This document shows, in pieces, positions 10,068-47,400 of a stretch of DNA of 64,000 bases. How positions within the stretch are numbered: position 1 is the stretch's first letter; every line of letters starts with the position of its first letter. The DNA lies in IMG/VR virus record IMGVR_UViG_3300037010_002844, positions 64,001 to 128,000 of that record. One strand, written 5' to 3'. Position numbers and translations under genes: made by a program. The notes beneath the pieces were generated by a model. That model was not told where the DNA came from. It did no database searches and saw only the letters and a list, made by a program, of their open reading frames with translations. Source of the stretch: a virus.

Positions 10068-11198
10068 TTACGTGATTTCCCTCAACTTCCAGACCGTCGT
10101 CGACGCGCCAAAGTCGTCCCTCTTGACCTCGGCACAACACAGGATGAAGGGGTCAGGAAGCTCCTTGCCGCCCCAGACAGAAATCTTCGTGGCCTTGCCA
10201 GTGGGTCCAACCGCAAAGATTTGCACATATTCCTTGCCATTGCGGGTCTTCTTCTTGATGCCCGTCACCGGCTTGCCACCCTTCTTTGCAGCAACAGGGG
10301 CCGTGACAAACCAGACGACCGCCGTGTCACCGTGCTCCAGGTCGTCAATGCTATTGACGCCCTTCTTCTCCAAGGCAGCCAAGATTTCGATGTCAATCAT
10401 GGCGGTGACGTCCAAAGCACCGAAGACGTCGACCATATTTTGAGCACGTTCAGAAGACGACCAGTCCTCGATGTCAGCGTAGTCCCTGACCAACTGGTAG
10501 AAGTTCTTAAGGCCCTCGTGCGGGTCAGACTTCGGGTGTCGCTTGATCAACGCCCCGTGATCGATGTCGACCTCTTCGGTGACCTCGACGCCCTTGCGCT
10601 TCTTGGTCACGGTCTCCACGTGAGAACCGAAGAGGACCTCGTGCATGTGATGATAGTTGTTGAAGACCTTGCCTTCGCCCACGATGTCCATACTGCCGAA
10701 GGCACCGATCTTGACCAGGGCCTCCATCGCCTTCTTGTTGAACTTGCTGTGTTTCCACTCGAAGTTGTCATCCCACAGCAACTCCTCGATAGTGTTGTAG
10801 GGACGGTTGGCCATGATCTCTTCGACCGCCGAGTCGCCGACACCCTTGCAGGACGTCATCGACGGCATCAACTTCTTGCCGGGCAGCGCGGTCCACCCGA
10901 GCCCCGCCAGGTTGATGTCGATCGGGACGATCTGATAGCCCAAGGCCTTTACCTCGCTGAACGCCTTAGCACGTTGAGCAGGAGTGTGCGACATGCTTTC
11001 GAGATAGGCACACAGCCATTCCTCCTCGTGATATGTCATCAGCCAGGCGCACCAGAAGCTGTCAATGGCGTATGCCACTGCATGGCTGTTAGACGTCAGT
11101 ATCCCGTTAGCGAGATAGAACTGGTGATCCGGGTGATCGACTTCGAGGTCATAGGTCTGGTGTCGACCCACGGGTGTGATAGACTTGATGTTACTCAT
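10068..11198 (-). CDS. dnaE: DnaE (Pol III alpha) fragment 8 of 8: C-intein 7 plus the C-terminal extein.
   Basis: C-intein 7 at 11088-11198 is MSNIKSITPVGRHQTYDLEVDHPDHQFYLANGILTSN. The extein at 10071-11087 starts SHAVAYAIDSFWCAWLMTYHEEEW, which matches the DnaE KSHAAAYA helix onward. Confidence 0.85.
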   Translation of the reverse strand: MSNIKSITPVGRHQTYDLEVDHPDHQFYLANGILTSNSHAVAYAIDSFWCAWLMTYHEEEWLCAYLESMSHTPAQRAKAFSEVKALGYQIVPIDINLAGLGWTALPGKKLMPSMTSCKGVGDSAVEEIMANRPYNTIEELLWDDNFEWKHSKFNKKAMEALVKIGAFGSMDIVGEGKVFNNYHHMHEVLFGSHVETVTKKRKGVEVTEEVDIDHGALIKRHPKSDPHEGLKNFYQLVRDYADIEDWSSSERAQNMVDVFGALDVTAMIDIEILAALEKKGVNSIDDLEHGDTAVVWFVTAPVAAKKGGKPVTGIKKKTRNGKEYVQIFAVGPTGKATKISVWGGKELPDPFILCCAEVKRDDFGASTTVWKLREIT

Positions 11199-11419
11199 GT
11201 GAGCAGGTCCTTCAACAGGTCTTCGATCGCTCCTGCGTTCGGTTCATCAAGCATTGCTTTAGCATACTCTTCTTCAATGTACTCGTCAGTCGGCTGGAGT
11301 TCAACCTTCGTTTCGCTTTTGCGTCGGTAACGTGCCGCGGCCCGTAACAGTTCGATCGGACTCAGACCCATGCGTTGGGCAATGTCATTCAGTGCGATTT
11401 CAAACGGCGGTCTTTTCAT
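11195..11419 (-). CDS. Small hypothetical protein (possible HTH) inside the intein-7 gap.
   Basis: 74 aa, with IALNDIAQRMGLSPIELLRAAARY. Overlaps the neighbouring genes at both ends. Confidence 0.4.
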   Translation of the reverse strand: MKRPPFEIALNDIAQRMGLSPIELLRAAARYRRKSETKVELQPTDEYIEEEYAKAMLDEPNAGAIEDLLKDLLT

Positions 11420-12449
11420 ACGCTTTTCCTATCCGATGAACGCCAGGTCGAGGATCTTTCAGGATCTCAAAAAGCTTTTTCAAGCAATCAGGTTCGAAGC
11501 GACCGCCATCCTTGTATGAGAACTGATCGTAAGAAATTCGAATGAGTGTCCAATCATGTTTAGTGATGTAATCATCAAGCATTGCATCCATGCACTTCAC
11601 TCGTTCAAAATTATCCTCGCCTTTAATACGTGCATTAAAATGGATGATTCCATCAAATTCAACATAAATGTGTCTTGATCGATCGGCAATGTCAACTTGC
11701 TTTCTTTTAGATTTGTTTGGAAAAGCAACTGACTTGACGACCTGATTATGAACAAAATCATAACCTTCAACGTTTTTCAACAAATCAAACAACGCTAATT
11801 CCGGAATGCTATGCCAAATAGCATGTGCAGCTTTTGTGCACTTTTCGTAGAACTCATCGGGGTTCAACTCACGCCAACGGGCCAGGCGCTCAGCACGTGC
11901 CTTGAGTATCTCAGGCCGGGTTGACGTTAGTCTTGCAACGTCTGATGAACGTTTACGGGCTTCAGGTCGTCGATTAAGTTCTCCCATTAGTTCAGAGCGA
12001 CGTTTCCTCTCGCCCGGATTGCTCGTGATGGCCTCACTGACCGCACGGCCCATCTTTTCCTTGTAGGCAGTCAAATCATCACCGCGTGCCTTCGCTCGTT
12101 TGAGCCAGGCGAAATTCTGCCCACGATGCTTGAAACGCGCTGTCGAGACTTTCGATGTGATTGCGGCAGTCGGGTACGCTTTCAGGTATTCTTCTTTGCT
12201 CATACCATGCGTCCCCGACAAGTGCTTTGCCAGTGCCTTACCCGTGAAGCCACAGACTTGGCATGTGACACTCTCACTGTCACCGAGTATGAATCCTTGG
12301 CACCTAGCTTGGTGTTTTTCGTAGGCCTTCAGGTAGACGAAGAGCCTGCTACATCGGTCACAACGATGCTGAGGCCCCGTTCGGCAATCATCCACAGGGG
12401 CAACATCTCGTTTGTCTCCTTCGTCCTGAACTTGTGATCCCACGTGCAC
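11400..12449 (-). mobile_element. Free-standing homing-endonuclease gene in the intein-7 gap (MucR-like zinc finger plus a DUF559/Vsr-like PD-(D/E)XK domain).
   Basis: CQVCGFTGKALAKHLSGTHGMSKEEYLKAYP resembles the Ros/MucR finger. The C-terminal SIPELALFDLL...QVDIADRSRHIYVEFDGIIH resembles the DUF559/Vsr-like nuclease core. It lies between N-intein 7 and C-intein 7. Confidence 0.65.
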
Positions 12450-13030
12450 TTTACCTTCTCTCCGGTCACCAACTCCACTTCTACCAAGTCTAGCTCACCG
12501 TGGTCGTGTTTTGCAACAACAGGGACGAGGATGTTTTTACCTGAATTCTCATCACGAGACATGACCAGGTCGCCGGGTTCGATGTGTTGAAGCTGCTTTG
12601 TCTCTTTGAACGTGCCGTCTGAAAAAAAGGTATTTACTGGTTCCGAAAAGTACAAACTTTTATTGAAGCCGTAGCCCGCGAAGTACAGAATCTTGTCGTA
12701 GAGGTTGTTGGCCACCTTCTCGGTATAACCGTTGGCGATGCAACCCTTGACGAACCCGTCACGGGTCTCTTGGGCTGCCTTCTTTGCCGCCTCACCGCCC
12801 GAGATGCTGCGCTTCATGATTGCGCGACGGACCTCGTCACACTTGTCCTTCGGGAAGCCGGCAGCCTTCTCGGCGAGTTCCATCACCTGTTCCTGAAAAA
12901 TTATGCAGTTATGCACGAGAAGGCCATTTGCGAAGAAGTTGTTGTTCTTCTTGACCTGGATGTCGTACACAGGCTGTGCAGGAACACGCTTGATCGCACG
13001 GATCTTGACGGGAACTACGTCAGGCATCAC
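12329..13030 (-). CDS. dnaE: DnaE fragment 7: C-intein 6, extein, N-intein 7.
   Basis: C-intein 6 at 12908-13030 ends PVYDIQVKKNNNFFANGLLVHN. The extein at 12659-12907 is CIIFQEQVMELAE...DEVRRAIMKRS...ILYFAGYGFNK. N-intein 7 at 12332-12658 is SLYFSEPVNTFFSDG...CTWDHKF. Confidence 0.85.
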   Translation of the reverse strand: MMPDVVPVKIRAIKRVPAQPVYDIQVKKNNNFFANGLLVHNCIIFQEQVMELAEKAAGFPKDKCDEVRRAIMKRSISGGEAAKKAAQETRDGFVKGCIANGYTEKVANNLYDKILYFAGYGFNKSLYFSEPVNTFFSDGTFKETKQLQHIEPGDLVMSRDENSGKNILVPVVAKHDHGELDLVEVELVTGEKVKCTWDHKFRTKETNEMLPLWMIAERGLSIVVTDVAGSSST

Positions 13031-13344
13031 TTACGCTCCGTTTCACGATGAGTCTGACAAACAATGTGTAATGACATTGAGCGCGACAAAGCATCACTGC
13101 CTAGAACGACTCGGCAAGGGTTGAGATTTTCCCCCACATGACGCATCCATTCTTGCAAAGCGTTGATCAATCGTTGGGCTTCGTTGAAACCCTCATGCGA
13201 GGGTGGAAACTGACAGCAACCTACCAAATCTCTAGTCCCAGGATCATATGCAATGATTCGCAAATTCCCATGAACGTTCATCTCTAGCGTTAGAGATCCA
13301 TAAACATCGTCATCGATCTCGCTAGTGTAAAGATCTGCGCTCAT
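13027..13344 (-). CDS. Hypothetical protein (cargo ORF in the intein-6 gap).
   Basis: 105-aa ORF with an ATGA-type overlap to fragment 7. No motif recognised. Confidence 0.45.
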   Translation of the reverse strand: MSADLYTSEIDDDVYGSLTLEMNVHGNLRIIAYDPGTRDLVGCCQFPPSHEGFNEAQRLINALQEWMRHVGENLNPCRVVLGSDALSRSMSLHIVCQTHRETERK

Positions 13345-13345
13345 A

Positions 13346-13591
13346 TCATTTTTCTTTCATGTTCAATGATGATGCGCAGAGTTGGCACACTGGTCCATCA
13401 ACACTCAAAACACGTTGACCATGGTATTCGAGCTCCATATCATTTCCGACCTCTTCATAAGCTCGAAATGTGTCGAACCAGTCGGCATACGTGAGATCAT
13501 CACGCTTTCCAAATGCCGTATGTGACTTCATCGTGTTGATAAAGTTCTTGAACGACGTAAGCAACTCCTCTTCAAAATCATCAATCTTCAT
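13346..13591 (-). CDS. Hypothetical protein (cargo ORF in the intein-6 gap).
   Basis: 81-aa ORF starting MKIDDFEEELLTSF. No nuclease motif. Confidence 0.45.
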   Translation of the reverse strand: MKIDDFEEELLTSFKNFINTMKSHTAFGKRDDLTYADWFDTFRAYEEVGNDMELEYHGQRVLSVDGPVCQLCASSLNMKEK

Positions 13592-13662
13592 GTCTAAATT
13601 GTCCTCAATTTGAGGTGATAGTTCAAGGCATCAGACTCCCAGACGCGGTACACCGTGAAGCC

Positions 13663-13842
13663 TCAAGTTCTTGTGGCAAGCGTCCATAATTGATCAAGCC
13701 TAAATTGCTTCTTCATCGCAGGTGTTAGTTCATGCTTCGCTGGGTTACTGTGCCAATAGTCGCCGTCGTACTCGATGATGAGGTTGAGTGATGGCACGAC
13801 GAAGTAGCCTGGTTTCAGTACTTCATTCCCAAAATCTCGTCT
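13663..13842 (-). pseudogene. Remnant of a Vsr-like homing endonuclease.
   Basis: My translation of a start-less open stretch is RRDFGNEVLKPGYFVVPSLNLIIEYDGDYWHSNPAKHELTPAMKKQFRLDQLWTLATRT*. The IEYDGDYWHS core matches AIECNG(V/L)YWHSE of the two intact endonucleases at 15352 and 17837. Confidence 0.6.
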
Positions 13843-14414
13843 TCAGACGTCAGTTCACCTGCTTGCACCCAACCACGAGGCGTCATGACAAGGTGATCTT
13901 CAGTCAAAGACAAAGTTTCTCCACCCTCCAGCTCAACCTCGATGATGTCACGTACGCCGTTTGAGGCGACAGCGACAACTTCGTCCATCTCGACGGTCTT
14001 CGTCATTTCATTGTATGACGGAAGCTTAGTTCCCACCATTCCTTGTTCAACGATTTGTCTAATGGGAACCTCACCTTGCTCAGTAAGGATATGTGTGTCA
14101 CCCGTCAAACACGAGTATGTCTTCTTCAGGATGTCGTTGACGCGGTGATCGCCCCACTCCAACTCCTTGCCGTCATTCTTCGCCTCCAAGTACAGTCGAT
14201 CGACTTTGGCGGCCAAGGGACCCGGGCGATAGATGCTGGTCAGCGTCGCGATGTCGATGATGCTCTTGGGCTTGCCTTTGACAAAGAGTCGCTGAGCGCC
14301 CTGGCCCGTGCAATTGTGAACAACGACGTCGTTAGCGACGAAATTATGATGATTTCGCACCTCGATGTCGTAGACGTGGCGCTTACCCACGCTGCGTGAT
14401 GACACAAGCTTCAA
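13815..14414 (-). CDS. dnaE: DnaE fragment 6: C-intein 5, extein, N-intein 6.
   Basis: C-intein 5 at 14313-14414 is MKLVSSRSVGKRHVYDIEVRNHHNFVANDVVVHN. The extein at 14112-14312 is CTGQGAQ...LTSIYRPGPLAAK...ILKKTYS. N-intein 6 at 13818-14111 is CLTGDTHILTEQG...LTEDHLVMTPRGW. Confidence 0.85.
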   Translation of the reverse strand: MKLVSSRSVGKRHVYDIEVRNHHNFVANDVVVHNCTGQGAQRLFVKGKPKSIIDIATLTSIYRPGPLAAKVDRLYLEAKNDGKELEWGDHRVNDILKKTYSCLTGDTHILTEQGEVPIRQIVEQGMVGTKLPSYNEMTKTVEMDEVVAVASNGVRDIIEVELEGGETLSLTEDHLVMTPRGWVQAGELTSEDEILGMKY

Positions 14415-14772
14415 GCGTCGTCTCCTTCTTTTCTAGCAACTGTAGGTCATATCCACTGACAAGTGCACACTTGAGCGTCGGATGCAACGTTACGAATGCG
14501 TCAAACTTCTCCCTAGCATCATCACGCCACCAGCCCTTGACTTCCACGTACACCCGCTTAAAGAGCTCCAACGTCGGTCATTGACGATGGAAGATCATGT
14601 ACGCCTCTCTTGTGAGCTGGATCCTGATCTCCTCCTCGCTGAAGCCCTCGTCCATGCAATGACGCCAGTTGTCATACAGGTCGACGACGCCATTCTTTCC
14701 GTTCCCGTTGCCCGCTGAGTGCAGAAAGTACAAAGGGGCGCTACGATGAGCGGAGCGCGTCCGTACAATCAC
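14383..14772 (-). pseudogene. T7 endonuclease I-like homing endonuclease remnant with an in-frame TGA (intein-5 gap).
   Basis: ORFs 14578..14772 and 14383..14571 are in the same frame and are separated only by TGA 14578-14580. VYVEVKGWWRDDAREKFDAFVTLHPTL resembles T7 endonuclease I FVETKGLWESDDRKKHLLIREQHPEL as I recall it. The upstream PD motif is not preserved. Confidence 0.55.
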
Positions 14773-14856
14773 ATGTTGCGGAGTCGTGGGCCTGTTGCGT
14801 CTCTGTAAGGCGACATGGCCACGGTCGCGGCGAAACCTGCGACCAAAACGCCCGCC

Positions 14857-15333
14857 TCACGTCAATCCACGAGCTTCGTAACCACTGCTAGACCCAATCA
14901 ACTCGTCGTCTTCGGTTAGGTGCTGTGCCTCAACCCACCCGCGATTCTTCGTCAAGATGGGATGATCAGCGGTGCAGACAAGCTTCTTGCCGTCGTCGAA
15001 CACGAGCTCGATGCACTCCTTGGGTCCTTGGTCGTAAACGACGTCGACGACTGATGTGGTGAACTGCTGCTTGACTTCATCGAAGACCGTCACCTCGTCA
15101 CCGACATGGACGTCCTTGATCAACTTGTACGAGTCATCGCCCATCAGCACTGCCGTGTCCTGGTCGACGCACTGGAAGATGCCTGCCCACTTGCCTTTCT
15201 CGTAGACCTCGTAAGGTTTGGGATCGGTGAAATCAATGACGGCCGGGTGCATGTGCTGCTCGAACCAGGTCTTGATGTCATTGAATGATACCGCATTTGT
15301 ATGTGCGTCAACGTTAGCAACGACTTTTGCCAT
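14857..15333 (-). CDS. dnaE: DnaE fragment 5: degenerate C-intein stub, extein, N-intein 5.
   Basis: MAKVVANVDAHTN is a decayed block-G-like stub. The extein at 15172-15294 is AVSF...DPKPYEVYEKGKWAGIFQ. N-intein 5 at 14860-15171 is CVDQDTAVLMGDD...CTADHPILTKNRGWVEAQHLTEDDEL. Confidence 0.8.
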   Translation of the reverse strand: MAKVVANVDAHTNAVSFNDIKTWFEQHMHPAVIDFTDPKPYEVYEKGKWAGIFQCVDQDTAVLMGDDSYKLIKDVHVGDEVTVFDEVKQQFTTSVVDVVYDQGPKECIELVFDDGKKLVCTADHPILTKNRGWVEAQHLTEDDELIGSSSGYEARGLT

Positions 15334-15351
15334 GTCTTTGTAAAGGTACTT

Positions 15352-17151
15352 TCACAGGTCCATAACGTACACCGCGTTGGAGCAACCAAAGATCTTAAAA
15401 AGCCTGTGTTCCATCGCCATCTCTTCTTGTGATGCGATCCCCGGAATCGCCCTGACAGCAAATCTATCGATACGATTTTGTCCGTCCGTCCACCAAAACC
15501 TAGGCTGCGTCATGTGATCAAATCTAAAACCAGATAGTTCATACGCCCGGCCAGTGCCACCCAACCTCATGTCACGGTATGTGATCATTTTTTGGTAACC
15601 ATGCTCACGTGACCAATCCCTGGCAGCGTTGATCAACCGCGACATGCCTCCAACGACGATGGTATCGCGGGCCGTTGAAACCCGCGCCAATTCAATTGTC
15701 TTAGATCCCCACTTAGTCTGCTGGTGCGGTTTTCGCAATGTCAATGCACAAATAATGTTTCCAGCAATGTCCTCTAGCCAGAACGAATGCGACGAAGGAG
15801 TGTTTCCATCGAGGTGATTGTTCGCCATGAACTGAGCGGTGATGGCTGGACGACCGCTGCGAAGATGTAGCTTTCGTGCCATCACGCGAGTAGCAAGACC
15901 AAGCTTTACCCTGATCATGCTTTTGATGATGTTTTTCTTTACATCATGGTGCCATTCATCGTCGAAGATATGTAGCAACGACACACCACGCTCAAGAGCG
16001 CGAGTCGACTTGTCTTGGTGATACGATGGTGGAGTACCGGTCGCCTCACTGTGCCAATAGACACCGTTGCACTCGATGGCAATCCTTCCGTTACCTGACA
16101 CGATGTCCAGCTCATAAGGCGCGATTGACTGTCTGTCGTTGGCGATGGCGTTCGAATCGAGCTTGACGAAGAAATCGAACACCTCACGATGCCAGCGAGA
16201 GAAATTAGCCGGGTAGCACGTTGAACACACCTTTCCCTTGTAAAGGACGTTAAAGGGAACAATATCAGGTACGTTACAACTGACGCATGTCACATGCACC
16301 GGTGTTGAGTATCCAGCAAACTCAAATTTTTCGATGTTCCACCTCGACCGCAGTGCATCAACTCGCCGTTCGACCTCTTCGAGAGACAACCGAAAAGGAG
16401 AGTTAGTGCCGTTCTCGATAAGGCGTTTTCTAGTCTCGATGATCGAACGTTTGATATCTTCAGAATTAGCGTTCCGAGACCAATGATTCAAGCGAACGCC
16501 TTCGCCGATCCGTTCTGATCGCCGTTTGATCCTATCGTCAGTTTCTGACGTCTGACCGTGCTGCGTCCAGTGTTTTTCTACTTGCCATTTTTCAGTCAAT
16601 GCTCGAGAGATGTTATGCGCAGCTCTTGTGATAGATTCATTATTTTCTTTAGTTTGTCCTGTTCTCCAGTGCCCGTGTTTTTTGATGAAATCACGACAAC
16701 CTTGTGCGGCCCTTCGAACCGATTCAGACGTTGTTTCTGACAGCCCCTTGTTCCATGCAGGCAATGATTTTGATTTCCGGCTAAGCGCACCTCTTACTTG
16801 AGAGTTCTTCTTGCTACAAACTCCACAGAGACGTTCATATCCCGTTTGAAAGGTCATGAACTTGACCGGCCCTGAACACTGAACGCACGGTCCAGGGTGC
16901 TCTCGAAAAAGAAGGTACGCAGCCTCCGCATTGAGCCCGTGCTTTTTAAGGAGATGTGCGCGGAGCGAATTTAGGCTAGCTTTTCGCAATGGATCATTGC
17001 ACTGTGGGCACCTCGAAGGACACGATGTCATCGCCGGGCCCGAGCTCCCTCGCAAGGATGGTGCCCCTGTTGCTGGTGACGATTCGTTGGTCGCCGTAGA
17101 CGCCTCGTGTCGTTCCATCGTCGAGTTGGATCTCAAACCACCCTCTTTCAT
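15352..17151 (-). mobile_element. Free-standing homing-endonuclease gene (zinc finger, NUMOD3-like repeats, Vsr-like nuclease, conserved C-terminal domain) at junction 4.
   Basis: Contains CPQCNDPL...HLLKKH, WNKGLSETTSESV and TGQTKENNESI repeats, and YELDIVSGNGRIAIECNGVYWHSE. The C-terminus is YRDMRLGGTGRAYELSGFRF...FWWTD...IFGCSNAVYVMDL. It is a paralog of 17837..19570. The true start is probably an internal Met (17118 or 17031), because the track start overlaps fragment 4. Confidence 0.75.
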
Positions 17152-17851
17152 GTCGTTCCTTTTTGATGATGAGCTCGATGGCGCGCTCGATGAGCCGCAT
17201 CGTTTCTAGACCTAGGAGGTCGTACTTGATGAACTCTCCGATCTTCTCAAGGTGTTTATAATTTACGCCCTCGACCCAAGGTGACTGTGGCTCGCGGACG
17301 CCGGCCTTGCCTTTGGACGTCACCAAAGGCATCTTGTTGGGCAAATCGTCTGCAATCAGCACACCACCCGCGTGACGACCGAGACTACGATTCTGCTTGA
17401 AGAGGATCTTGATCGACTCGGCGACGACCGGGTACTTCTCAATGAAGCCGCGAAACGACGGGCTGACCGGCTGCTTACACTCTGGGCTACAGCCCTGGCA
17501 GATGGACTTCGACTCCGGGCCCTTAGGAGCCCTGCAGTGGAAGGCCATGGCCTCATCGTAGGTCAAGACGAACAGATTCTTGTCGTCGCCTTCCTTCATC
17601 GTCGCCTTACGGACCTCGTCCTCGACGGTCCGCGTGGCAGCGTTGGTCTCCTCGAATGGGATGCCGTAGAACTTGCCGATATCCTTTACAAGCGTTTTTA
17701 GTTTGAAACAGTTATAATTGCTGATGGGAACGACGTTTTCCCACCCAAAAAAGTTTCGAAGTTCATCAAGAACCTCATCTCGCCTGGCAAGATCGGTGTT
17801 GTGAACAACGACGCTCTTGTTGGACGCCAAAAATGAATGAACGACCATCAC
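16994..17851 (-). CDS. dnaE: DnaE fragment 4: very short C-intein 3, palm/fingers extein, degenerate N-intein remnant.
   Basis: Starts MVVHSFLASNKSVVVHN (17798-17848, ATG at 17848). The extein is TDLARRDEVLDELRNFFGWENVV...SLGRHAGGVLI...IKYDLLGLETMRLIERA. The tail at 16997-17140 is WFEIQLDDGTTRGVYGDQRIVTSNRGTILARELGPGDDIVSFEVPTVQ. Confidence 0.85.
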   Translation of the reverse strand: MMVVHSFLASNKSVVVHNTDLARRDEVLDELRNFFGWENVVPISNYNCFKLKTLVKDIGKFYGIPFEETNAATRTVEDEVRKATMKEGDDKNLFVLTYDEAMAFHCRAPKGPESKSICQGCSPECKQPVSPSFRGFIEKYPVVAESIKILFKQNRSLGRHAGGVLIADDLPNKMPLVTSKGKAGVREPQSPWVEGVNYKHLEKIGEFIKYDLLGLETMRLIERAIELIIKKERHERGWFEIQLDDGTTRGVYGDQRIVTSNRGTILARELGPGDDIVSFEVPTVQ

Positions 17852-19570
17852 ATGAATCCTAACTCAACTACAGTTGAATTTACATGCGCTCGTTGTGGTC
17901 GAAACCACGAAACGCTACGAGCATTGAAGATCCACGAGGCACGACACAGGCGAGAAGACGCCAGGCCTCCCAAACAGGTGTCAACTTACGCGTGTCCGTG
18001 GTGTGAGGCGTCATATGACAGCGGGCGTAAGTTGACATTGCACTGCACAAAAACGCACCAAAAATCACCCGTCGTTGTGTATGAAACAAGGTACCCAGGG
18101 TGCAGGAAGACGTGCATCGATTGTTGCGACTGGGTCAGGTTCATCGATCAAGAAAAAGGATACCCCGAACGGTGTCCACGTTGTAGCCGAAAACACGCAT
18201 ACGCGTCCAAGGGCACCTCGTCATGGAACAAAGGCCTGACGAAAGACAATGACGAACGCATGTCAGCCAGTGCTGCAAACATGCGAGCTCACTACAAGGA
18301 ACACGGTCACCACAACTCCGACAAGACAAAGGAAAACAACGAAAGCCTTAAACAAAAGGCGGCAAAAATCAGCGACAGCCTGCGGAGGTATTATGCAACG
18401 CACAGCGGCTGGTCACTTGGCCTGACAAAGGATACGTCTAGCATCATTGAATCTCGCAGTAAGAAGATCAGCGCTTCGTTGAAAGGACGATTCTTTAGCG
18501 ACGTAACGCTTGAAAAAATGCGCAAGGCAAAGTTGCTGACGCACGACGAGGTACAAAAACGCCTCAAAGAAAAGCAGCTTAAACTCATTGACGAATATGT
18601 CGATACTGTCACCAAAGCGCGCATCGAATGCACGATATGTTCAACAATATTTGAGCGTTGCGTTGGCGCAGTGTTCAACAACGAGGCCAAGTGTCCCACC
18701 TGCTTTCCGCCTTGGTCAGACAAAACGAGCAGGTGGCAACAGGACGTCTACGCATTTATCCAGACGCTGGCACCTGACGCAGTCCTTAGCGATCGTAAGA
18801 CGCTCGGCGGAATGGAGCTCGACATACTCATTCCATCGCGCATGTTTGCCATCGAGTGCAATGGCCTATACTGGCACAGCGAGGCCGCCAATAGATTTGA
18901 GCACGATCACGCGGAAAAGAAGAGATTGCTGTCCCTCAAAGCCGGCGTATCGCTTTTCACGTTATTTGAGGATGAGTGGCGCGACAAACGACCGATAATC
19001 GAAAGCATGTTGCGCCATCGCCTTGGGTTTTCTACCAAAGTCGATGCGCGTAAGTTGAAAGCAGAACGCTGCGAGCCCGAAGAAGTTCGAGAATTCATCA
19101 ATCAGTGCCACCTCGACGGTCACGTGAGGGCCCAATTTGCCGTGCGATTGGTAACCTCATCGGGCGAAATCGTAGGCGCCTGCAGCCTTAGGTGGGCACG
19201 AAATGGGGCAGACAGAACGACGATTGAGATCGCTCGCCTGTGCTTCAAGCTTGGCACACATGTACGAGGCGGGGTGTCAAAATTGCTATCAAAGGCAAAA
19301 GCTATAGCAAGAGAAAACAATGCAGCGAGGTTGATGTCTTACTCAGACAATCGCTTGGGAGGAAACGGTTATGCCACCTCAGGCATGAAGTTCAACGGTA
19401 CCACAGTCGCTCGCTTCTGGTGGACTGACTTCATGCATCGTTACGACAGGTTCAAGTACCGAGCCAACAAGAAGCAAGGTCTAACAGAAAAACAGGTAGC
19501 GGAGGCTGCCGGCGTTTATCGCATCTATGGCTGTAGCAACTCTCGCTACGTCTTAGACGTCACAGCGTGA
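17837..19570 (+). mobile_element. Homing-endonuclease gene on the opposite strand inside the intein-3 gap (C2H2-like finger, NUMOD3-like repeats, Vsr-like nuclease, conserved C-terminal domain).
   Basis: Contains CARCGRNHETLRALKIHEARH, then WNKGLTKDNDERM and SDKTKENNESL and GLTKDTSSIIESRSKKIS, then MELDILIPSRMFAIECNGLYWHSE. The C-terminus is YSDNRLGGNGYATSGMKF...FWWTD...IYGCSNSRYVLDV. Its ATG at 17837 overlaps, head to head, the ATG at 17848 of fragment 4. Confidence 0.8.
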
Positions 19571-19872
19571 CGCTAATGTCATCGTCAAACTTTGAGGACG
19601 CATTTTCTTTGAGCCAGAAGATGGCGTCAATTGTGCGCTCGTCGGCGTCGGCGTCATCGCACGACGTAGCCCCATAGTATGGGGGCCAAATCGTGCTCAA
19701 ACCCTTTAACGCGCAGTTTGACCTGACAATCTTGAAATTCAGGATTTTCTGCAGCTCTCGTCTGAGCTATTCTTTCCAGGCCAGACACTATCACATCATC
19801 TGCTCGGCAGAATCGCCGTTGTCTGTAAGCTGCACCGCATCAACGTTGCTCGGACACGGTCCCAACTCCAGC

Positions 19873-20610
19873 TCAAATTTCATAGTTGCGCTCGCTGTGG
19901 TCTGTTCTTCTCTTAGACGCGCACCAATCGCTGCAAAAATTGTCTCCTTCGCCACACGCAAGGAACGTGCCAGGAATGACGCCCATGCAATAACCGACGT
20001 CATGTGATGGATCACCTCCACTTAGAATGGACGTATTGAACGGTACCACGTGGAATCTGTGATCGTCTTCAACAGTCAGGTCGACGTATCTAGCGTTGGA
20101 AGAGCCCCAACCACCGTGCTCGATCGATACGACCTCAACGCTGCCGCATGATGCCATCAATTCATCTCCGACCTTAAGGTCGCGGCAGTACACGATGACG
20201 CCGTCAGCTCTGACAAATTTGTGACCGGGCACCACCAAAATGTGGCCCAACGTACCATCATTGGCCCTAACTCTGACCCAGACAGCGTCCTCGAATGGCC
20301 GCAAATTTCTAGCATAGGTCGCAGTTACTGCGTGTGGCATTCCATCGCCTCCCAGGACGACGTCGCCGACAATGATGTCAACAGCTCGCTTATGAGTGCC
20401 GTCTGTCATGACGACAAGATGGTCCTCGTGGACGCAGTCGATATCAGGAGCACCAGAGTTATGTGTCAGCACCCAATCGCTATCGTTGTTGGACACCCAA
20501 AACGTATGCTGGCCTTCGACCTCGATGTCGATGAGTTCTACACTTTCATCGACAACCTCGATAGCTTCAATTTTGGCCGTGCTTGCTGATGAGATGTTGG
20601 GTTCCTGCAT
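19873..20610 (-). CDS. dnaE: DnaE fragment 3: C-intein 2, 7-aa extein, long N-intein 3.
   Basis: C-intein 2 at 20458-20610 ends ELIDIEVEGQHTFWVSNNDSDWVLTHN. The extein SGAPDID is at 20437-20457. N-intein 3 runs down from 20436 as CVHEDHLVVMTDG...VVPGHKF...ARYVDLTVEDDHRF (to about 20053). About 60 unrelated codons follow. Confidence 0.8.
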   Translation of the reverse strand: MQEPNISSASTAKIEAIEVVDESVELIDIEVEGQHTFWVSNNDSDWVLTHNSGAPDIDCVHEDHLVVMTDGTHKRAVDIIVGDVVLGGDGMPHAVTATYARNLRPFEDAVWVRVRANDGTLGHILVVPGHKFVRADGVIVYCRDLKVGDELMASCGSVEVVSIEHGGWGSSNARYVDLTVEDDHRFHVVPFNTSILSGGDPSHDVGYCMGVIPGTFLACGEGDNFCSDWCASKRRTDHSERNYEI

Positions 20611-21532
20611 AGTCCCTGTGCTCTAGATTGGCAATCGTATGGTACAAACCTTGTCGACGAAGTTCACCATAGAAGTCATTCATGTACACGACGTCGATGC
20701 GCTGACCAGACGCCACAACGACTTCCCGTGAACGTGCGTTTGAGTTAAGCAACTTTGAGAAACGCGATTTGCCTTCTCGCACACCTTTCAACTCCACGTA
20801 TCGGTCCTCATCACTGAACCAAAAGTCTGGAGTGTAACACTTCTCTTTGCCATCGATGACAACATGGAAAGACCTATGTTCATAGAATGGCATCTTACCG
20901 AGGTGCAAGCAATATCTGTAGTAGTCGGCTTCGAACGAGCTCTTGAAGTACGGGCTGTTTAGGATGTCGGAACGAAAACACGAGCGTCCGTTCACATGTG
21001 AAGCAACCATATCACGTGACTGTGCCTCGCGGGTGCACCGTTTGGAACAGAACCGCGGCACGTAGCTCTTCTTGGTGACGATCGGTTCGCTACAAACTTC
21101 GCATACCAACGTGTGGCGGTCAAACCTCGATGCAGCGAAACATTTGGGTGAACAGAACCTGCGATTGACGTTCTTCGTTGAGAAAGTGCCTAGACACTGT
21201 ACACATGTCAGTGTACGGAGCTCATTCTTTGTCAGCGCTTTCGCAGTGTACTTGTGCCTGCACGCATTCGAACATAGTTTTCTGTTGTTGTGACACTTTG
21301 GAACGTAGAACTCATCGCCGTACTCGACGCACGTCTTCACAAGCCTCGAGGGCATGGGAGCGTGTGACATCAGCTTCCTGTGAGCGACGGCACACTCATC
21401 AGTGCAGTACGGGCGATGGAGCCTACTACCAGAACCCTTGCAGTTGGGCTCATAGTTGAACTGAAACATAATACCACAGTGTTTACACTGTTTCTCAATG
21501 ATGCTCATAGTGGTACGTGTACAGCTCGTCAC
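20567..21532 (-). mobile_element. Free-standing homing-endonuclease gene in the intein-2 gap (four CxxC...FCSxxC zinc modules plus a T7 endonuclease I-like PD-(D/E)XK domain).
   Basis: The repeats are CKHCG...RPYCTDEC, CVEYG...RKLCSNAC, CVQCL...RRFCSPKC and CEVCS...PRFCSKRC. The C-terminal KCYTPDFWFSDEDRYVELKGVREGKSRFSKL matches the T7 endo I YTPDF...FVETKG core as recalled. Confidence 0.7.
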
Positions 21533-21992
21533 TCGTCGACAGCTCAGATGTATACTTCTTCACAGGTTGTCCATCAGGACCCACTGTCAACCACACATGA
21601 TTTTCAGAACACGTGAACGTAGTACCATTCACCTTCACGCGGTACGTCTTCTCATGTTTTGTGGTCATGGTGAACGTAACTTTACGGTGTGAGCCATCCT
21701 GTGAGACAACGCTGTCACCGACTTTCACGTCTCGAAGCGCGGACGACGAACCATCTGACATCAATACCTTTGTGTCTGGCGACAGACACCTGTGAACGCT
21801 AAGGAATCGCGCGAAAGGCAGGTCCCAGAACAACGGGTCCAAGTCGGTGATGTATAGGACGTAGGCGACCAGAGAGCCACCGCCCGAATTGTGGACTGCA
21901 ATACCTTCCACGTTGTAAGTGTGGCTGTTTTCCACACACAGGTCTACGACCTCACCCTTATACGGTACGACAGTCTTACTTCTGAGCTTCAT
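21495..21992 (-). CDS. dnaE: DnaE fragment 2: C-intein 1, 33-aa extein, N-intein 2.
   Basis: C-intein 1 at 21888-21992 is [35 protein letters not shown]. The extein at 21789-21887 is [33 protein letters not shown], matching the DnaE GSAAGSLVAY..ITDIDP..FERFLNPER region. N-intein 2 at 21498-21788 is [13 protein letters not shown]...CSENHVW. Confidence 0.85.
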
Positions 21993-22076
21993 GATATGCG
22001 TTCGCTCTCTTCATGTAAGCCTTGAGATCCCTGTCTAATAGACATTTGACGAGGATCAGGTAAACTTAGTTGAGTT

Positions 22077-23762
22077 TCATTCAACCTCGATTAGGTCATC
22101 ATCTTCAGTCAAGTGTTGTGCTTCAATCCACCCACGATTCTTCGTCAGAAACTTATGCTCCTTGGTGCACCTGATCTTCTTACCGTCATCAAACTCGAGT
22201 TCTAGCAGCTCCTCATCAACCTGATACCTGAAGATCTGAGTCACCATCTGATCAACACCATATGCATCCTTGATAACGTCGCCCACCTTGATGGTGCCAA
22301 TGGGAGCATGCATGCCGTCAGCCATTAGAACCCGCGTCTCAGGAACGAAACAACCGCGGGCTGGGCCGGTAAGGCACACATTGCGTGCCAGCTCCATGAT
22401 CTTCTGGTAGGAAATGAAGTAGTCAGAGTTTTTCATCACCTTAATGACGCCGAGTTCCTCCTTGAGGCGCGCGATATACTCTGGCTTGTCTTGAAGACCA
22501 CGCTTCACCATGCCCACCTTACAAAGCGAGATGAGGTGATTGAACGAGGTCGTGCCTTCGGGCACCAACAACCTCGTCGGAAACTTGGGCGAACGATCGG
22601 GTGGAATCTCCCCGATGACACTGTGTGCGATATCGTGAGTCCGCTCAATGGCGTCACAGACGACTTCATCGTCATACCAGTCGGTGCCTTCCTTGGAGCG
22701 CTGGTACTCATCCCACATCTGTTGGGCGTTCTTCGGATAGAGCTCACACTTCAGCTCATCCTTCGACTTCGGAATCGCGTCAGGATTGATCTCCTGGTAG
22801 TTCATCCAACCCAGGCGCTTGTAGAGCTCACGGTCCTTCCAACGATCGGGATTATAGTAGTGAGCATCGCCGGTGACGATCAGCTGCTTGTTGAGCCCAT
22901 TGCGACGAGCGAACTCCAGGATCGCGCGGTTGACGAGGTTCTGCGCCGGTAGGCGATTGAACTGCAGCTCGAGGAAGTAGTTTCCTTCGCCGACTGCATC
23001 GACCATGTGCTGGTAGGTATTGCCCACCGCGACAACGCATTTCTCGAGCAGCACAGGGTCACTGAGCAACCGTGCGTCGAGCTCGTCAAACTTGTACTGT
23101 TGGATTTCCTGGAATATGGAGTACGCCGGCATGCCGCCGATACAAGCGCTGCTGACGATGATGTCGCCGCCTTTGGCTGCCTCTTTGAGGACAGCATGGT
23201 CAATGCGCGGGAACTTGTAGAAGCCCTTCAAGAATCCCTTCGAACATGCTGCGAAGATCGCCAACAGGCCCTTCTGGTTCTTGGGCAGAATGACTAGGTG
23301 ATGCCGTCGGTTGACGGGATTGAAGTGTTTGGTCGATTTGGACTCTTCCTCGTTTTCGACAGTCAAGGCGTTGGACATCTCAATGTCCTCAGTCTCATCA
23401 TTTTCATCGATGGTGGCGATGATCTTGGTCTGCAGCTTTTCCTGCTCCTTAGCAAGCTTGGCCGCAACCCTCCTGTCTCCCTTCGCCTGCTCTGCGAGTT
23501 CGACGTCCTTCTTCCATTGCTCCAGGTCGGGATGGTAGTACGCCTCGACGCCGGGAATGTACTTGAACGACTTTCCCTTATTGGCCTTGGCCCACTCCTC
23601 GACCCACAGTTGAGCGTGGGCATAGGAGTTCATGTTCCCGTGCTCGGTGATGGCATGGCCATCGAGCCCGTTCTCCATGCACCACTTGAAGTGTTCATCG
23701 GGATAGCCCAAACCATCGAAGGGCGCATTACGAGAAGCCCGTGTGGTTGTGCAAACCGACAA
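22077..23762 (-). CDS. dnaE: DnaE fragment 1: PHP and N-terminal half, plus N-intein 1.
   Basis: Contains FDGLGYPDEHFKWCMENGLDGHAITEHGNMNSYAHAQ (PHP) and ends ...CLTGPARG, followed by N-intein 1 at 22080-22352 (CFVPETRVLMADG...CTKEHKFLTKNRGWIEAQHLTEDDDLIEVE*). The track start (TTG 23762) is an artefact. The real N-terminus is in another frame (see 23728..23820). Confidence 0.85.
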   Translation of the reverse strand: MSVCTTTRASRNAPFDGLGYPDEHFKWCMENGLDGHAITEHGNMNSYAHAQLWVEEWAKANKGKSFKYIPGVEAYYHPDLEQWKKDVELAEQAKGDRRVAAKLAKEQEKLQTKIIATIDENDETEDIEMSNALTVENEEESKSTKHFNPVNRRHHLVILPKNQKGLLAIFAACSKGFLKGFYKFPRIDHAVLKEAAKGGDIIVSSACIGGMPAYSIFQEIQQYKFDELDARLLSDPVLLEKCVVAVGNTYQHMVDAVGEGNYFLELQFNRLPAQNLVNRAILEFARRNGLNKQLIVTGDAHYYNPDRWKDRELYKRLGWMNYQEINPDAIPKSKDELKCELYPKNAQQMWDEYQRSKEGTDWYDDEVVCDAIERTHDIAHSVIGEIPPDRSPKFPTRLLVPEGTTSFNHLISLCKVGMVKRGLQDKPEYIARLKEELGVIKVMKNSDYFISYQKIMELARNVCLTGPARGCFVPETRVLMADGMHAPIGTIKVGDVIKDAYGVDQMVTQIFRYQVDEELLELEFDDGKKIRCTKEHKFLTKNRGWIEAQHLTEDDDLIEVE

Positions 23763-23820
23763 ATCGTCGGGGCACTCGCACCGAGCTTCCCTTGGCGTCC
23801 TCCTTTCCTTGCTGCGTCAT
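23728..23820 (-). other. dnaE: True 5' end of dnaE (PHP motif I), out of frame with the rest of fragment 1.
   Basis: ATG 23820-23818 (ATGA overlap with the upstream stop) gives MTQQGKEDAKGSSVRVPRRFVGLHNHTGFS, then TAA at 23730-23728. Removing one base in tcg-t-aat would read ...GFSNAPFDGLGYPDEH, the canonical PHP HxH...DG continuation. Confidence 0.7.
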
Positions 23821-24137
23821 TTACCTTCCCACCTTACCTTGTCACGGTACTGTAGACCCAATTGACGGTACTGGACACCGTCAATGACCACGATAGTCAC
23901 TTCAGGAAACTTGATTCGCATCAGTGCAAGCTGATAGCACGCCTTGTCAGACCACCTTCCCTTAATTTCGTAGTACACGCTTTCATCGTGAACGAAAATC
24001 TGGTGTGTACCAAGCCGGCCATGTCGGCGATCTGCGGCAACGTGGCCATACCAATGGGTATCAGCACGCGGAGCCACTTGGGCAGCTTGTTCCAGGTGGG
24101 CTTCAGCTGGGTGACGAGCTATGAAACAACGATGCAA
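23817..24137 (-). CDS. Small T7 endonuclease I-like protein, probably a degenerate homing-endonuclease remnant.
   Basis: THQIFVHDESVYYEIKGRWSDKACYQLALMRIKFPEVTIVVIDG parallels YTPDF...FVETKGLWESDDRKK...HPELDIRIVF. The PD aspartate position is not conserved. Confidence 0.45.
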   Translation of the reverse strand: MHRCFIARHPAEAHLEQAAQVAPRADTHWYGHVAADRRHGRLGTHQIFVHDESVYYEIKGRWSDKACYQLALMRIKFPEVTIVVIDGVQYRQLGLQYRDKVRWEGK

Positions 24138-24211
24138 CCAGCGGCAACCTCGGCAGCAATGTCTGCAAGAACCATGTCGTCATGGTAAACCGGAAGCGAT
24201 CAGTTTTACAT

Positions 24212-44404: not shown

Positions 44405-47400
44405 TCACCCGCATTTGCTGTTTCCGCAGTTCATGCAAGTAACGCATCCCTGCTGATAGGCGAGCGACGTCGAGGCACAGATCGGGCAACACTTTTCCTG
44501 CGTTGCCTTGGTCCCATCCACGATGTAGTGCTTGCTCAACGTTCGCGCGATAACCGTCGAGAACGAGAACAGATCGCTGTGCTTGTCCTTGCGGAGCTGC
44601 TCGACGACAAGGTGAACTGGTACTCCATGTCGAAGTGTCATCGACAAGGTTCGAGTGTGCGCTCCGTACAACGGATTGTCGAAGAGGTTGACAATGTCCT
44701 TATAGAGAAGGAAATTGTCGTCCAGGTCGACGCGGAGGTTGTACGTGGACACCCCGTCAGCGTTCTTGCCGTTCTTGATGAGGACGCCCTTCTTGGCCTT
44801 CCTCGGGACTTCAACCTGTTCTGACAGTCCGGCGAACAGCTCGTAAGGCTTGCCGTTCATGAGGCCCACGAAGACCAGGTACTTCTCACCCTTGATCGAA
44901 ACGTGGTGAATGTCACACTCCAGCTCCTTCGGACGCTTCAGAGAGTGAGACTCGGCGATATTCTTGGGTTGGTCCGCCGCTGTCTTCTTCTCGTCCTTGA
45001 TGAGGACGCCATCACGAGAACCATCTCGATAGATGGTGACGCCCTTGCAACCAGTCTCCCAACCGCGCATGTAGATCTGCTTCACCACATCGACCGGCGT
45101 GTCACTCGGAATGTTGGTGGTGTTCGAGATGGAGTGACAGACCCACTTCTGAGCTGCGGCCTGGACGTCGATCTTCTTGACCCAGTCGATGTCATTCGAC
45201 GTGGCACCGAAGTAAGGCGACTTTTCCACGTCGGTCTCACCAGTGACGTCCATCCACTTCTTGAATCCGTGGTGATAGACCGTGTACTCCTGCCACTTGT
45301 CGCCCATGGCGTCAACGAAGTCGACACGAGCATCCAAGTCATTCGGATTGATCTTCTTCCTTCGCTTGTAGCTCAGGAGGAAGGCGGGCTCGCAGCCAGA
45401 TGTAGTCTGGGTCAAGATGGAGACAGAGCCAGCTGGCGCTGTCGTCGTCAAGGCGATGTTGCGACGTCCATAGAGACGATACTGATCACGGAGCTCATGA
45501 TCAGCGTCCATCACTTGTTCAATGAAAGGATGTCCCTCTTCCACCTTGTGGGAAAAAATCGGGAAGGGACCACGATCACGTGCCATCTCAACAGTCGAGC
45601 GGTAGGCACCCAACGCGAGGCCCTTATAGATCTGCTCAGTGACGTTGATAGACTCGTCCGAACCGTACTTGATGTTGAGGTAGGCCAAGGCATCGCCCAA
45701 GGCAGTGATGCCCAAGCCGGTGCGACGACCATTGATTGCAGTGTTGCGGATCTTGGTCCATAGCTCGATTTCGGGCCGCTTCACGTCAGCGGGCTCAGGG
45801 TCATTCTCGATCTTCTGCATGATTCGATCAATGGCCTCGAGCTCCAGGTCGACGAGATCGTCCATCAACTTCTGCGCCTTCTTAACAACATCGTTGAAGC
45901 GCACGAAGTCAAAACTGGCGTGAGGAGTAAATGGATCTCTGACGAAGCGAGCGAGGTTGACGAGAAGCAAACGACATGAATCGTAAGGCGACAGCGTAAT
46001 CTCACCGCATTGTTCGCTAGCGATTATTACGTTTGCTTGATTTTGGAACTGTACAAGCTTTTCGTCACCAACATACATGCACAGTGTGTGCTCTCCGTCG
46101 ACAGTGCCGTTGTACACGTCTTCGACACCCGCGGGTTCAACGCTGATCACGCGGTGATTGTGCAATGCCGCGGCCTCTTTCAGGGCAGACCAGGACGCAA
46201 AACCGTTTTTGGTACCGATTCGTGCCGGCACATCCAAGCGTCGACATTCGGCAACCCACTCTCTTCCCAAGGGCTCTCTACCCAACGTAAACCTAAGTGA
46301 GGTAAAGGCGTCAAGTTGCTGTTTTCGCGTTACTTCTGCACGATCAGCGTGAAGCTTCTTCAGGTTCTCTGCCCGTGCAACGTTCTTATTGGCCTTCCTG
46401 TTTGCGTAGAGGTTGGAACACGAATGTGAGCAGAATGCCTGTTCACGTCGGCAGTACGGCAGCGCGAACATTTCGTTGCACCACTCACACGTCCGGTTGA
46501 CGTACAGCTCACCGTCGATCACATCGACATCATAACCTTCTTCAAGGGCCTGAACGTACGTACGTTGAATCCTCGTGTCGAGTTCTGGTGTTGAGATGTC
46601 GACCTCTCGAGCCGCCCAGCACGACAGGTCGTAGAAGCTTCCCAGCTCGCTGCGACGCCAGGCCGAAAACGACATCGGCAGCGACCGTTGTTTAGCGTAA
46701 GCGTACCACTCGTTCAGTGAAACGCGGCGGCCGAGCGACCGGGTCAACCCCAGCACGTGTTGGCGGATGTCATCATTGGTGACGTTGTCATAGGCACGCG
46801 GATTGTTGGCCCCACCGACGCTCTCGCTCATCTTCGCCGAATATTCAGCAAACTTGCCAGCGACTTTATGAGCAACCCAAAGTTGATCGCCATTCAACAG
46901 CTCGTCGACTCGCTTCCGGGATCCGTCACGCATGATCATCGTGTGGTTTCCGGTGGCCTTAAAAGTGTGACCTCCCTCAATGGTCACCTTGAACACAGGA
47001 ACTCCCTTACCGGTAAGCCTAGGATTCCTCATCAGGCGGATGCCAATTTTTCCTGTGGCCTCCTGGTAACAATAGACCGGCAAGTCCTTGCCTTCGTCAG
47101 CTAGCTGCTTGATGGGCACGTAACCCCTTCCGTCAGCGACGGCGATAAGAGTTTCTCCCGTAATGCACGGGTTGGTGCTCGTCGAGCCGTAACCAAACGC
47201 AGCGTAGGCATCTGCTGGCCCGCGGCGCAGGACAGTGTCCCAGAACAGCAAACCGGGTTCAGCAGATTCCCATGCTGCCTGGATGATCTCATGCCACAGT
47301 TGGCGAGCGTCTACCTGTTCCTCGACGATGTGAGGAACGTCTTTGTCAACTGGAAACCGCAGTTGAACCTGCGTACCCGCCTTAACGGCGTTCATGAACT

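Follow-up and report, generated by a model that had tools for sequence, protein, structure and literature searches.

The window analysed here is the whole of a 64,000-nucleotide (nt) stretch of phage DNA (IMG/VR virus record IMGVR_UViG_3300037010_002844, positions 64,001 to 128,000 of that record), and the feature under study is the 5' end of dnaE, an essential polymerase gene encoded on its minus strand. The segment encoding the start of the PHP domain is separated from the rest of this gene by a short gap that opens with a stop codon, and gaps of the same design recur at the same site in related phages. The evidence is computational throughout.

The 5' junction of dnaE

The gene opens with a mini open reading frame (mini-ORF) of 30 sense codons (MTQQGKEDAKGSSVRVPRRFVGLHNHTGFS; 23731..23820, minus strand), which starts at the ATG at 23820..23818, encodes the first PHP strand and the HxH metal-binding motif with a leader of 23 residues ahead of the first His, and ends …RFVGLHNHTGFS before the stop TAA at 23730..23728. 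The long dnaE ORF (…NAPFDGLGYPDEH…) is in the +1 frame relative to the mini-ORF and runs to the stop at 22079..22077. Fragment 1 of the gene continues in this ORF (22077..23723, minus strand) with what remains of the PHP domain, then the beginning of the Pol III alpha catalytic domain and the N-terminal half of a split intein, as recognised by the Pfam families PHP, DNA_pol3_alpha, Hom_end_hint and Intein_splicing; the intein half begins CFVPETRV... at about 22352. The ATG of dnaE is overlapped by the TGA stop of the upstream ORF (ATGA). A Shine-Dalgarno-like GGGAAGG (23824..23830, minus strand) lies 3 nt upstream of the start codon and doubles as the conserved C-terminal WEGK of a nuclease described below, and the same layout of tgggaagg followed by ATG is also found at five related loci (L004, L010, L055, L062 and L149).

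The downstream ORF alone matches Pfam PHP with 65.2 bits over profile positions 11-162, and joining the mini-ORF to it extends the match to profile position 2, so the 30-aa piece carries the start of the PHP domain. A first-pass annotation of this DNA had reported both an N-terminal piece with the PHP HxH motif, out of frame with the rest, and the coupling of its ATG to the upstream ORF, and both reports are borne out by the ORFs and the extended Pfam match. The features expected of a DnaE PHP domain, namely HxH, a fixed spacing from it to DG and a PF02811 match from the start, are found only when the mini-ORF and the downstream ORF are joined, and residues H24, H26, S30, D33, G34 and H41 are invariant in the family alignment. 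From their sequences, both segments appear to be translated into a single protein.

The size of the interruption follows from comparison with related phage contigs, whose DnaE proteins share 43-79% identity with that of the window. In 128 of the 164 fetched loci, HxH and DG are spaced 27 nt apart, and these 128 intact relatives read GFS-(P/T/A)FDG; those homologues that have the N-terminus among the 120 close ones read …HNHTGFS-PFDGLGYP…, with the Ser directly before the Pro. Because the intact relatives keep this fixed spacing, the window holds 7 extra nt and not one, which rules out the one-base indel (an extra base at tcg-t-aat) suggested in the first-pass annotation. The layout is TTC TCG, then the coding gap TAATGCG (23724..23730, minus strand; absent from 128 of 128 intact relatives), then CCC TTC GAT. 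The proposed take-off codon is TCG, the Ser of GFS (23731..23733, minus strand). The gap starts with the TAA at 23730..23728 and closes with the proposed landing triplet GCG (23726..23724), which is the sole triplet in it that re-pairs with the take-off codon at two of three positions and the best in-frame candidate. Resuming at CCC, the Pro of PFDG (23721..23723, minus strand), gives GFS-PFDG, the exact family consensus.

The insert is real. Its junction is base-for-base identical in three assemblies, two from JGI (3300035181, on a 309,481-bp contig, and 3300036715) and one from Logan (SRR11727985, which differs by one single-nucleotide polymorphism elsewhere and not at the junction), and this identity rules out an assembly error. 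A truncated gene call of 533 aa (P0001), 100% identical and beginning within the downstream ORF, is recorded for 7 contigs. The alternative of an error or a genuine recoding had been rightly posed beforehand, and its first half falls to the three identical assemblies and to 27 like interruptions in relatives. About 20 of the 120 closest database proteins start just after HxH (MENGLD…, MDGLGYP…, MHTLGSRSETPFDG…), among them P0025, P0027, P0031, P0034, P0037, P0039, P0045, P0049, P0053-55, P0072, P0077, P0079, P0089, P0110 and P0111, and DnaE thus appears to be systematically truncated by gene callers at gapped junctions. Such junctions make gene callers shorten an essential gene, and pipelines will flag a pseudogene or an assembly error.

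The genetic code of the window is standard, with TGA, TAA and TAG all used as stops, and no tRNA genes were found in it. Among the long minus-strand ORFs of the window the stops are TGA in 31, TAA in 4 and TAG in 2 cases; given this strong skew towards TGA, the gap's TAA is a stop seldom used in this genome.

Recurrence of the gaps and their association with a nuclease gene

At the dnaE site 27 distinct inserts were found, with lengths of 5, 6, 7, 8, 9, 10, 11, 12, 15, 16 or 42 nt, of which 13 are in frame, 8 at +1 and 6 at +2. A Ser codon precedes the insert in all 27; it is the Ser of GFS, or in L100, L037, L128 and L164 the Ser three codons earlier. TCN serves as the take-off codon in 20 of 21 junctions, whereas 49 of the 109 intact genes have it there (p=1.7e-5). 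Every insert has a stop codon first (TAA in 11, TAG in 10, TGA in 6), and several in-frame inserts hold two different stops, such as TAG TGA in L004. The last triplet matches the take-off codon at two or more of three positions in 25 of 27 inserts (chance rate 10/64, P ~2e-18) and is a synonymous Ser codon in 14, with a landing codon identical to the take-off codon in L070 only. Removal of the insert restores the family consensus with zero codons gained or lost. No other in-frame candidate ever outdoes the consensus-restoring triplet, which in the short gaps is the sole re-pairing triplet of any frame.

This comparative-genomic pattern is well supported, and since it comprises all three frame classes as well as in-frame gaps that bear stops, the set is not explained by a single frameshift direction, by readthrough or by a reassigned code. 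Stop reassignment or a suppressor tRNA is ruled out on further grounds: three stops are active in the window, which has no tRNA genes, and the gaps use all three stops, often two per gap, with 14 of 27 out of frame.

The 42-nt variant (L037:2537-2581, L128:2537-2581 and L164:~1300-1360) is the form most like the bypassed gene 60 of phage T4. Its take-off is at the earlier Ser, between HAHS and GFS, its landing is on TCA, and no nuclease gene is adjacent. It holds a perfect hairpin of 10-12 bp with a conserved stem and a variable loop, and in these gaps all earlier re-pairing matches sit within a perfect 12-bp hairpin. Folding of the 42-nt variants gives z values of -2.6 to -2.9, and the window junction is without such a hairpin. 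The 42-nt hairpin cassette was not found outside dnaE; other hairpin matches were unrelated.

When the DnaE sequences were grouped by average-linkage clustering, gapped and intact states were interleaved over the tree, with sisters of 92-97% identity differing in state. L037 (+42) and L057 (+5) are 94% identical, yet they carry different inserts at different Ser codons. The search for close relatives among cultured phages gave no megablast match and only tblastn matches of <30% identity.

Purifying selection acts on the mini-ORF. A mini-ORF that starts with ATG and is 23-36 aa long is kept in all 21 junctions of the sample that was drawn from dnaE, and its pN/pS is 0.12 in the all-gapped clade of the window and 0.27 among loci sharing the gap 'taacg'. 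Its last 15 codons are near synonymous saturation, and H-x-H-x-G-F-S is nonetheless kept. In 13 of the 21 junctions there is no ATG, GTG or TTG in the downstream frame ahead of the resume codon, and separate initiation is therefore unable to supply the invariant D33, G34 and H41. The leader before HxH is also longer in gapped loci, with a median of 21 residues (never <19) against 12 in intact ones (p=1.4e-10), and carries a recurrent (E/K)N(P/S)VRVP motif; because of these lengthened leaders, the nascent chain at take-off would be 23-36 aa long.

The gap is associated with a nuclease gene. In sister pairs, the gapped member has an extra 1-1.5 kb directly 5' of the junction, and from precisely the resume codon onwards the two members are homologous again, so that the homology break of these pairs lies at the gap. 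The extra block encodes a protein of 270-320 aa with Zn ribbons and a T7-endonuclease-I-like PD-(D/E)XK domain, intact copies of which match PF05367 and phrog_945/9019. In a search with a hidden Markov model (HMM), 13 of 21 gapped loci and 4 of 112 intact ones had this nuclease immediately upstream of dnaE (p=1e-9). When loci were instead sampled by way of the nuclease, the result was concordant, with 25 of 31 loci gapped, against 8 of 116 nuclease-free loci (p=6e-16). Essentially all close relatives of the nuclease (HMM score >150) lie upstream of dnaE, and lower-scoring relatives lie in unrelated contexts.

In the window this nuclease survives as a degraded remnant (23817..24179, minus strand), recognised with an HMM of the intact copies (E=2e-16, 58 bits). 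Its ORF of 106 aa is open over 24179..23820, with only the C-terminal ~95 aa recognisable; in the alignment the Zn-ribbon N-terminus is deleted, and WEAN has become AEAH, YEP has become YGH and YTPDF has become THQIF. The remnant occupies the entire 394-nt interval between a conserved epimerase gene and dnaE, which in the intact L009 is only 37 nt long. Since the upstream ORF is a C-terminal remnant with degraded catalytic motifs, the nuclease in the window is dead while the gap persists.

A nuclease adjacent to an intact junction was observed in L175, L192, L193, L195, L196 and L200, which came from the sampling of the nuclease, and also in L005, L048, L106 and L114; the gene is fragmented in L005 and L106. 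Among the first six, 4 use AGY for the serine of GFS, all have short leaders, and 16-41 nt separate the nuclease stop from HxH. Intact loci with an adjacent nuclease may be immune through sequence divergence.

Proposed ribosomal bypassing and its alternatives

We consider it probable, with considerable room for doubt, that TAATGCG is bypassed by the ribosome and immunises dnaE against a homing endonuclease, as an independent parallel to T4 mobA and gene 60. Translation would begin at ATG 23820 and be coupled to that of the nuclease remnant ahead of it. At the gap, peptidyl-tRNA-Ser would occupy UCG in the P site and the A site would hold the stop UAA; the tRNA would then unpair, the mRNA would slip by 7 nt, and the anticodon would re-pair with GCG by two G:C pairs, so that decoding would restart at CCC. 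The predicted product is a single polypeptide, ...HNHTGFS-PFDGLGYP..., in which the PHP domain is whole and the junction would be marked by the peptide FVGLHNHTGFSPFDGLGYPDEHFK. As there is no intein at the 5' junction, the rejoining of the two segments would have to occur during translation.

The mobile cassette would consist of the free-standing homing-type nuclease gene, the mini-ORF with its lengthened leader and the gap, moving as one block. The nuclease would cut the conserved PHP-motif DNA in naive phages, the insert would destroy the target in the cassette's own genome, and the hop would keep the essential polymerase intact. In the phage of the window, the nuclease gene would later have decayed and the gap have been retained. 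Cleavage of the uninterrupted target is suggested by the homology break, which lies at the gap; this step, the hop itself, its efficiency and a role for the nascent peptide are what we infer from the sequences.

Several points weigh against this interpretation. The gap sequence of the window occurs in this phage only, and the triplet on which the tRNA would land, GCG, is no more than near-cognate to UCG (2/3). No RNA structure is detectable at the window junction (folding against shuffled sequence, z=-0.34), so any stimulator there would have to be the nascent peptide or something else. UAA followed by U is a strong termination context in E. coli and would compete with hopping. Gap variants of one cassette lineage are statistically non-independent, and a conservative count by lineage gives 8 of 9 (P ~3e-6). 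Part of the conservation of the mini-ORF could reflect recent acquisition rather than selection. It is also possible that a second, intact dnaE lies elsewhere in the 309-kb genome; the sole indication to the contrary is that among 160 fetched loci no contig occurred twice. For hops of 5-16 nt that are both natural and efficient, the account of Atkins et al. (2016, PMC5009743) offers no verified precedent in bacteria or phages.

The rule itself fails at one locus. L197:~1957-1998 reads CAT GTG CAT, then TAA GGT CCC, then ACA GAG TAT (FCHLHVH, stop, GPTEYSPLDG), an in-frame gap of 9 nt that follows a His and whose last triplet, CCC, does not re-pair. L197 is a different, more canonical type of DnaE and adjoins a distant relative of the nuclease.

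Among the alternatives, an unlikely one that nevertheless has some points in its favour is that the insertion is a relic without recoding: the mini-ORF peptide would be discarded and DnaE made from an internal start, TTG 23762 or the ATG of 'MENGLD', losing the first PHP strand and still polymerising. Gene callers did pick an internal ATG (P0001), the window has a TTG 39 nt ahead of the resume codon, and the nuclease invasions look recent in several lineages, so that conservation could be a lack of time for decay. A dead 5' end would not be expected, however, to show pure insertions that keep the flanking codons, with a stop first and a re-pairing triplet last. The purifying selection on the mini-ORF in gapped clades, and the intact state of the mini-ORF beside the heavily decayed nuclease in the window, also speak against a relic, as do the 13 of 21 junctions without a start able to supply the invariant D33/G34/H41 region and the invariance of H24, H26 and S30 in the family.

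We regard as hardly more plausible than a relic, and if anything slightly less so, the programmed +1 frameshift at UCG-UAA-U that the first-pass annotation had offered, in which the U of UAA would be skipped, AAU GCG CCC read and GFS-NA-PFDG made, with the junction peptide FVGLHNHTGFSNAPFDGLGYPDEHFK. The downstream frame of the window is indeed +1 and a stop stands in the A site, as in prfB, and one extra residue in this loop is tolerated by some lineages (L040, L151 and P0083). Its product still matches Pfam PHP from profile position 2, with 73.0 bits, which is 7 bits below the product of the 7-nt hop (80.2 bits, positions 2-162). Re-pairing from UCG to CGU would be 0/3, and a two-residue insertion between S and P occurs in 0 of 128 intact relatives. 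A stop does come first in 27 of 27 gaps, but there is no prfB-like slippery codon. A +1 shift also gives no account of the sister gaps of 5, 6, 8, 9, 11, 12, 15, 16 and 42 nt, which fall in all frame classes and of which 13 are in frame with stops, many with one or two; this explanation would thus need a different mechanism for each phage.

Termination at the gap followed by reinitiation, giving a two-piece PHP domain with which the 30-aa peptide would associate non-covalently, strikes us as quite improbable. The last gap triplet is TTG, a possible start, in L062 and L109, and the rest of dnaE is likewise built from separately translated pieces. Against this, the window junction has a single start-like codon, the ATG within TAATG, which is out of frame and begins an ORF of 32 aa, so that a restart there is ruled out; most landing triplets (GCG, ACG, ACC, ACT, TCT and TCA) are not bacterial starts, and a domain for the association is absent.

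Still less credible is removal of the gap from the RNA before translation, by micro-splicing or editing. It would restore the consensus at every gap length just as hopping would, but it leaves unexplained why the gaps begin with a stop and end with a codon-matching triplet, which are features at the level of the ribosome, and no process is known by which 5-16 nt are cut out of bacterial or phage mRNA. An artefact of sequencing or assembly, for which only the general prior speaks that frameshifts in essential genes are often errors, has a negligible chance in view of the identical junction in two JGI and one Logan assembly, the same truncated call on 7 contigs, an insert of 7 non-repetitive nt that is no homopolymer indel, and 26 further variants of the same design in unrelated samples.

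The proposed bypass has its fullest counterpart in T4 gene 60, whose bypass is accompanied by the mobA homing-endonuclease cassette (Bonocora et al. 2011, via Manning & Atkins 2022, 10.1101/2022.08.31.505936). As in gene 60, a non-coding insert lies within an essential replication gene, a stop stands directly 3' of the take-off codon with additional stops within the gap, a landing codon matching the take-off codon, in the window at 2/3 positions, adjoins the resume codon, and the longer leader may be the equivalent of the N-terminal extension added there. Both have an adjacent free-standing endonuclease gene, which in these descriptions is often decayed or lost while the gap stays ('hit and run'), and the insert is thought to shield the target from the nuclease; the 42-nt variants (L037, L128 and L164) also share a hairpin at the gap start that hides competing landing sites. 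The host gene, however, is a topoisomerase there and dnaE, at its PHP motif, here; the nuclease is the HNH protein MobA there and a Zn-ribbon protein with a T7 endonuclease I-like PD-(D/E)XK domain (PF05367-like) here. Take-off is at a Gly GGA in gene 60 and here at a Ser (UCN), 23-36 codons from the start, and the gap of ~50 nt is conserved there, whereas the gaps here are highly variable, with 5-16 nt in the short forms, which are without detectable RNA structure and often land on a triplet just 2/3 matched. By inspection the dnaE gap is not homologous in sequence to the cassette of gene 60 and mobA, as host gene, gap length, take-off codon and nuclease family differ, and it would be gene 60-like in its working without being a homologous family member. 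The survey of gene 60 by Manning & Atkins (2022, 10.1101/2022.08.31.505936) gives cases in topoisomerase genes only, and a gap at the DnaE PHP motif is mentioned neither there nor by Dassa et al. (2009, PMC2677866).

Short hops are also on record from engineered systems. Synthetic stop-hops in E. coli, together with +5/+6 hops (Weiss et al. 1987 and subsequent studies; review, Atkins et al. 2016, PMC5009743), resemble the proposed event in that, as summarised in the review, peptidyl-tRNA re-pairs a few nt downstream over a stop and a slow A-site codon matters; those hops are engineered and of low efficiency, whereas the dnaE cases are natural, recurrent and, in a gene that is essential, apparently selected. 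The same review describes natural in-frame stop-hops as not known, and shorter-distance counterparts as having 'long been presumed' (Atkins et al. 2016, PMC5009743). It further reports 81 'byps' inserts in mitochondrial genes of Magnusiomyces capitatus (PMC5009743), which are like the dnaE gaps in being many short inserts made harmless by bypassing, with take-off and landing often 2/3 matched. Byps differ in that they belong to mitochondrial translation, with an unused A-site codon, many genes and sites and no linked endonuclease, whereas the dnaE gap concerns a single site in a single gene, with a stop in the A site, and phage or bacterial translation. Byps inserts are ~27-55 nt long.

Two other systems are partly similar. 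The +1 frameshift of prfB (RF2) shares the in-frame A-site stop and, in the window, the +1 downstream frame; it differs in that the dnaE gap lacks a slippery codon of the CUU-U type as well as re-pairing at +1, and in that sister gaps are other than +1. Fractured genes (Dassa et al. 2009, PMC2677866) likewise include phage-like DnaE invaded by free-standing endonuclease genes, but there the rejoining is post-translational, via trans-splicing inteins, and the 5' junction here has no intein.

For decades, bypassing in the bacterial world has rested on T4 gene 60 and its direct homologues, and the dnaE gap of the window suggests itself as what would be a natural short-range counterpart. In a broader form, the proposal is that natural efficient short hops (5-16 nt, over stops, with 2/3 re-pairing and no RNA structure) form a class in uncultivated large phages, driven by the nascent PHP leader and spread as the immunity module of a homing-nuclease cassette; the solution of gene 60 would then have been invented a second time, independently, and these would be the first natural stop-hops of bacterial-type translation, and we hold the chances of this to be about even. 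If the bypass interpretation is right, ~27 naturally varied minimal bypass sites share a take-off context while gap length, stop and landing triplet vary, a natural mutational series for what ribosomes require in order to hop. Two unrelated homing nucleases would then have converged on the same arrangement, in which a target insert of a few bases confers immunity and the ribosome skips the insert.

The remainder of dnaE and the replication module

The whole of dnaE (window 10068..23820, minus strand) is split into ~8 separately encoded pieces, with the Pfam Pol III domains in order: 23820-22077, 21992-21495, 20610-19873 and 17851-16994 for pieces 1-4, and 15333-14857, 14414-13815, 13030-12329 and 11198-10068 for pieces 5-8, all on the minus strand. 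Most of them end or begin in split-intein halves (Hint and Intein_splicing matches), with nuclease ORFs between. The doubt that had been cast on these broken ORFs along with the 5' junction proves unfounded, as they are split-intein fragments separated by endonuclease genes and not errors. Split-intein halves with an endonuclease between them, the mark of a fractured gene, are found at the later dnaE breaks and not at the 5' junction, and the gene is broken up to a much greater degree than the fractured DnaE genes of Dassa et al. (2009, PMC2677866), which have a single split.

Between the fragments of dnaE there are free-standing nuclease-like genes, at 20567..21532 (minus strand), 17837..19570 (plus strand), 15352..17151 (minus strand) and 11400..12449 (minus strand). 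One of these inter-fragment genes belongs to the same Zn-ribbon and endonuclease-I-like family as the 5' cassette (phrog_945/9019, phrog_1271), two encode large Zn-finger proteins in which a Vsr-like motif (…ELDIL…ECNG.YWHSE…) was spotted by eye, and one encodes a ROS/MucR-type zinc finger.

The fragment at 19873..20610 (minus strand) contains an apparent extein of just 7 residues, SGAPDID, flanked by a C-terminal intein half (…VLTHN) on one side and by the next intein (CVHEDHLVVMTDG…) on the other; SGAPDID is the catalytic-aspartate motif of the polymerase. Fragment 4 (16994..17851, minus strand) closes with a Hint-like stretch (WFEIQLDDGTTRG…) that lacks the usual N-terminal Cys, and fragment 5 (14857..15333, minus strand) opens MAKVVANV… without a recognisable C-terminal intein half. 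The junction of fragments 4 and 5 may not be joined by protein splicing.

Farther along the window, at 44405..48046 and 48129..49592 (minus strand), are the large subunit of ribonucleotide reductase, which carries an intein-like insertion (Intein_splicing, residues 305-653), and a DnaB-type helicase. Because the intein-bearing reductase adjoins the helicase, the replication module is seen to be heavily invaded by mobile elements.

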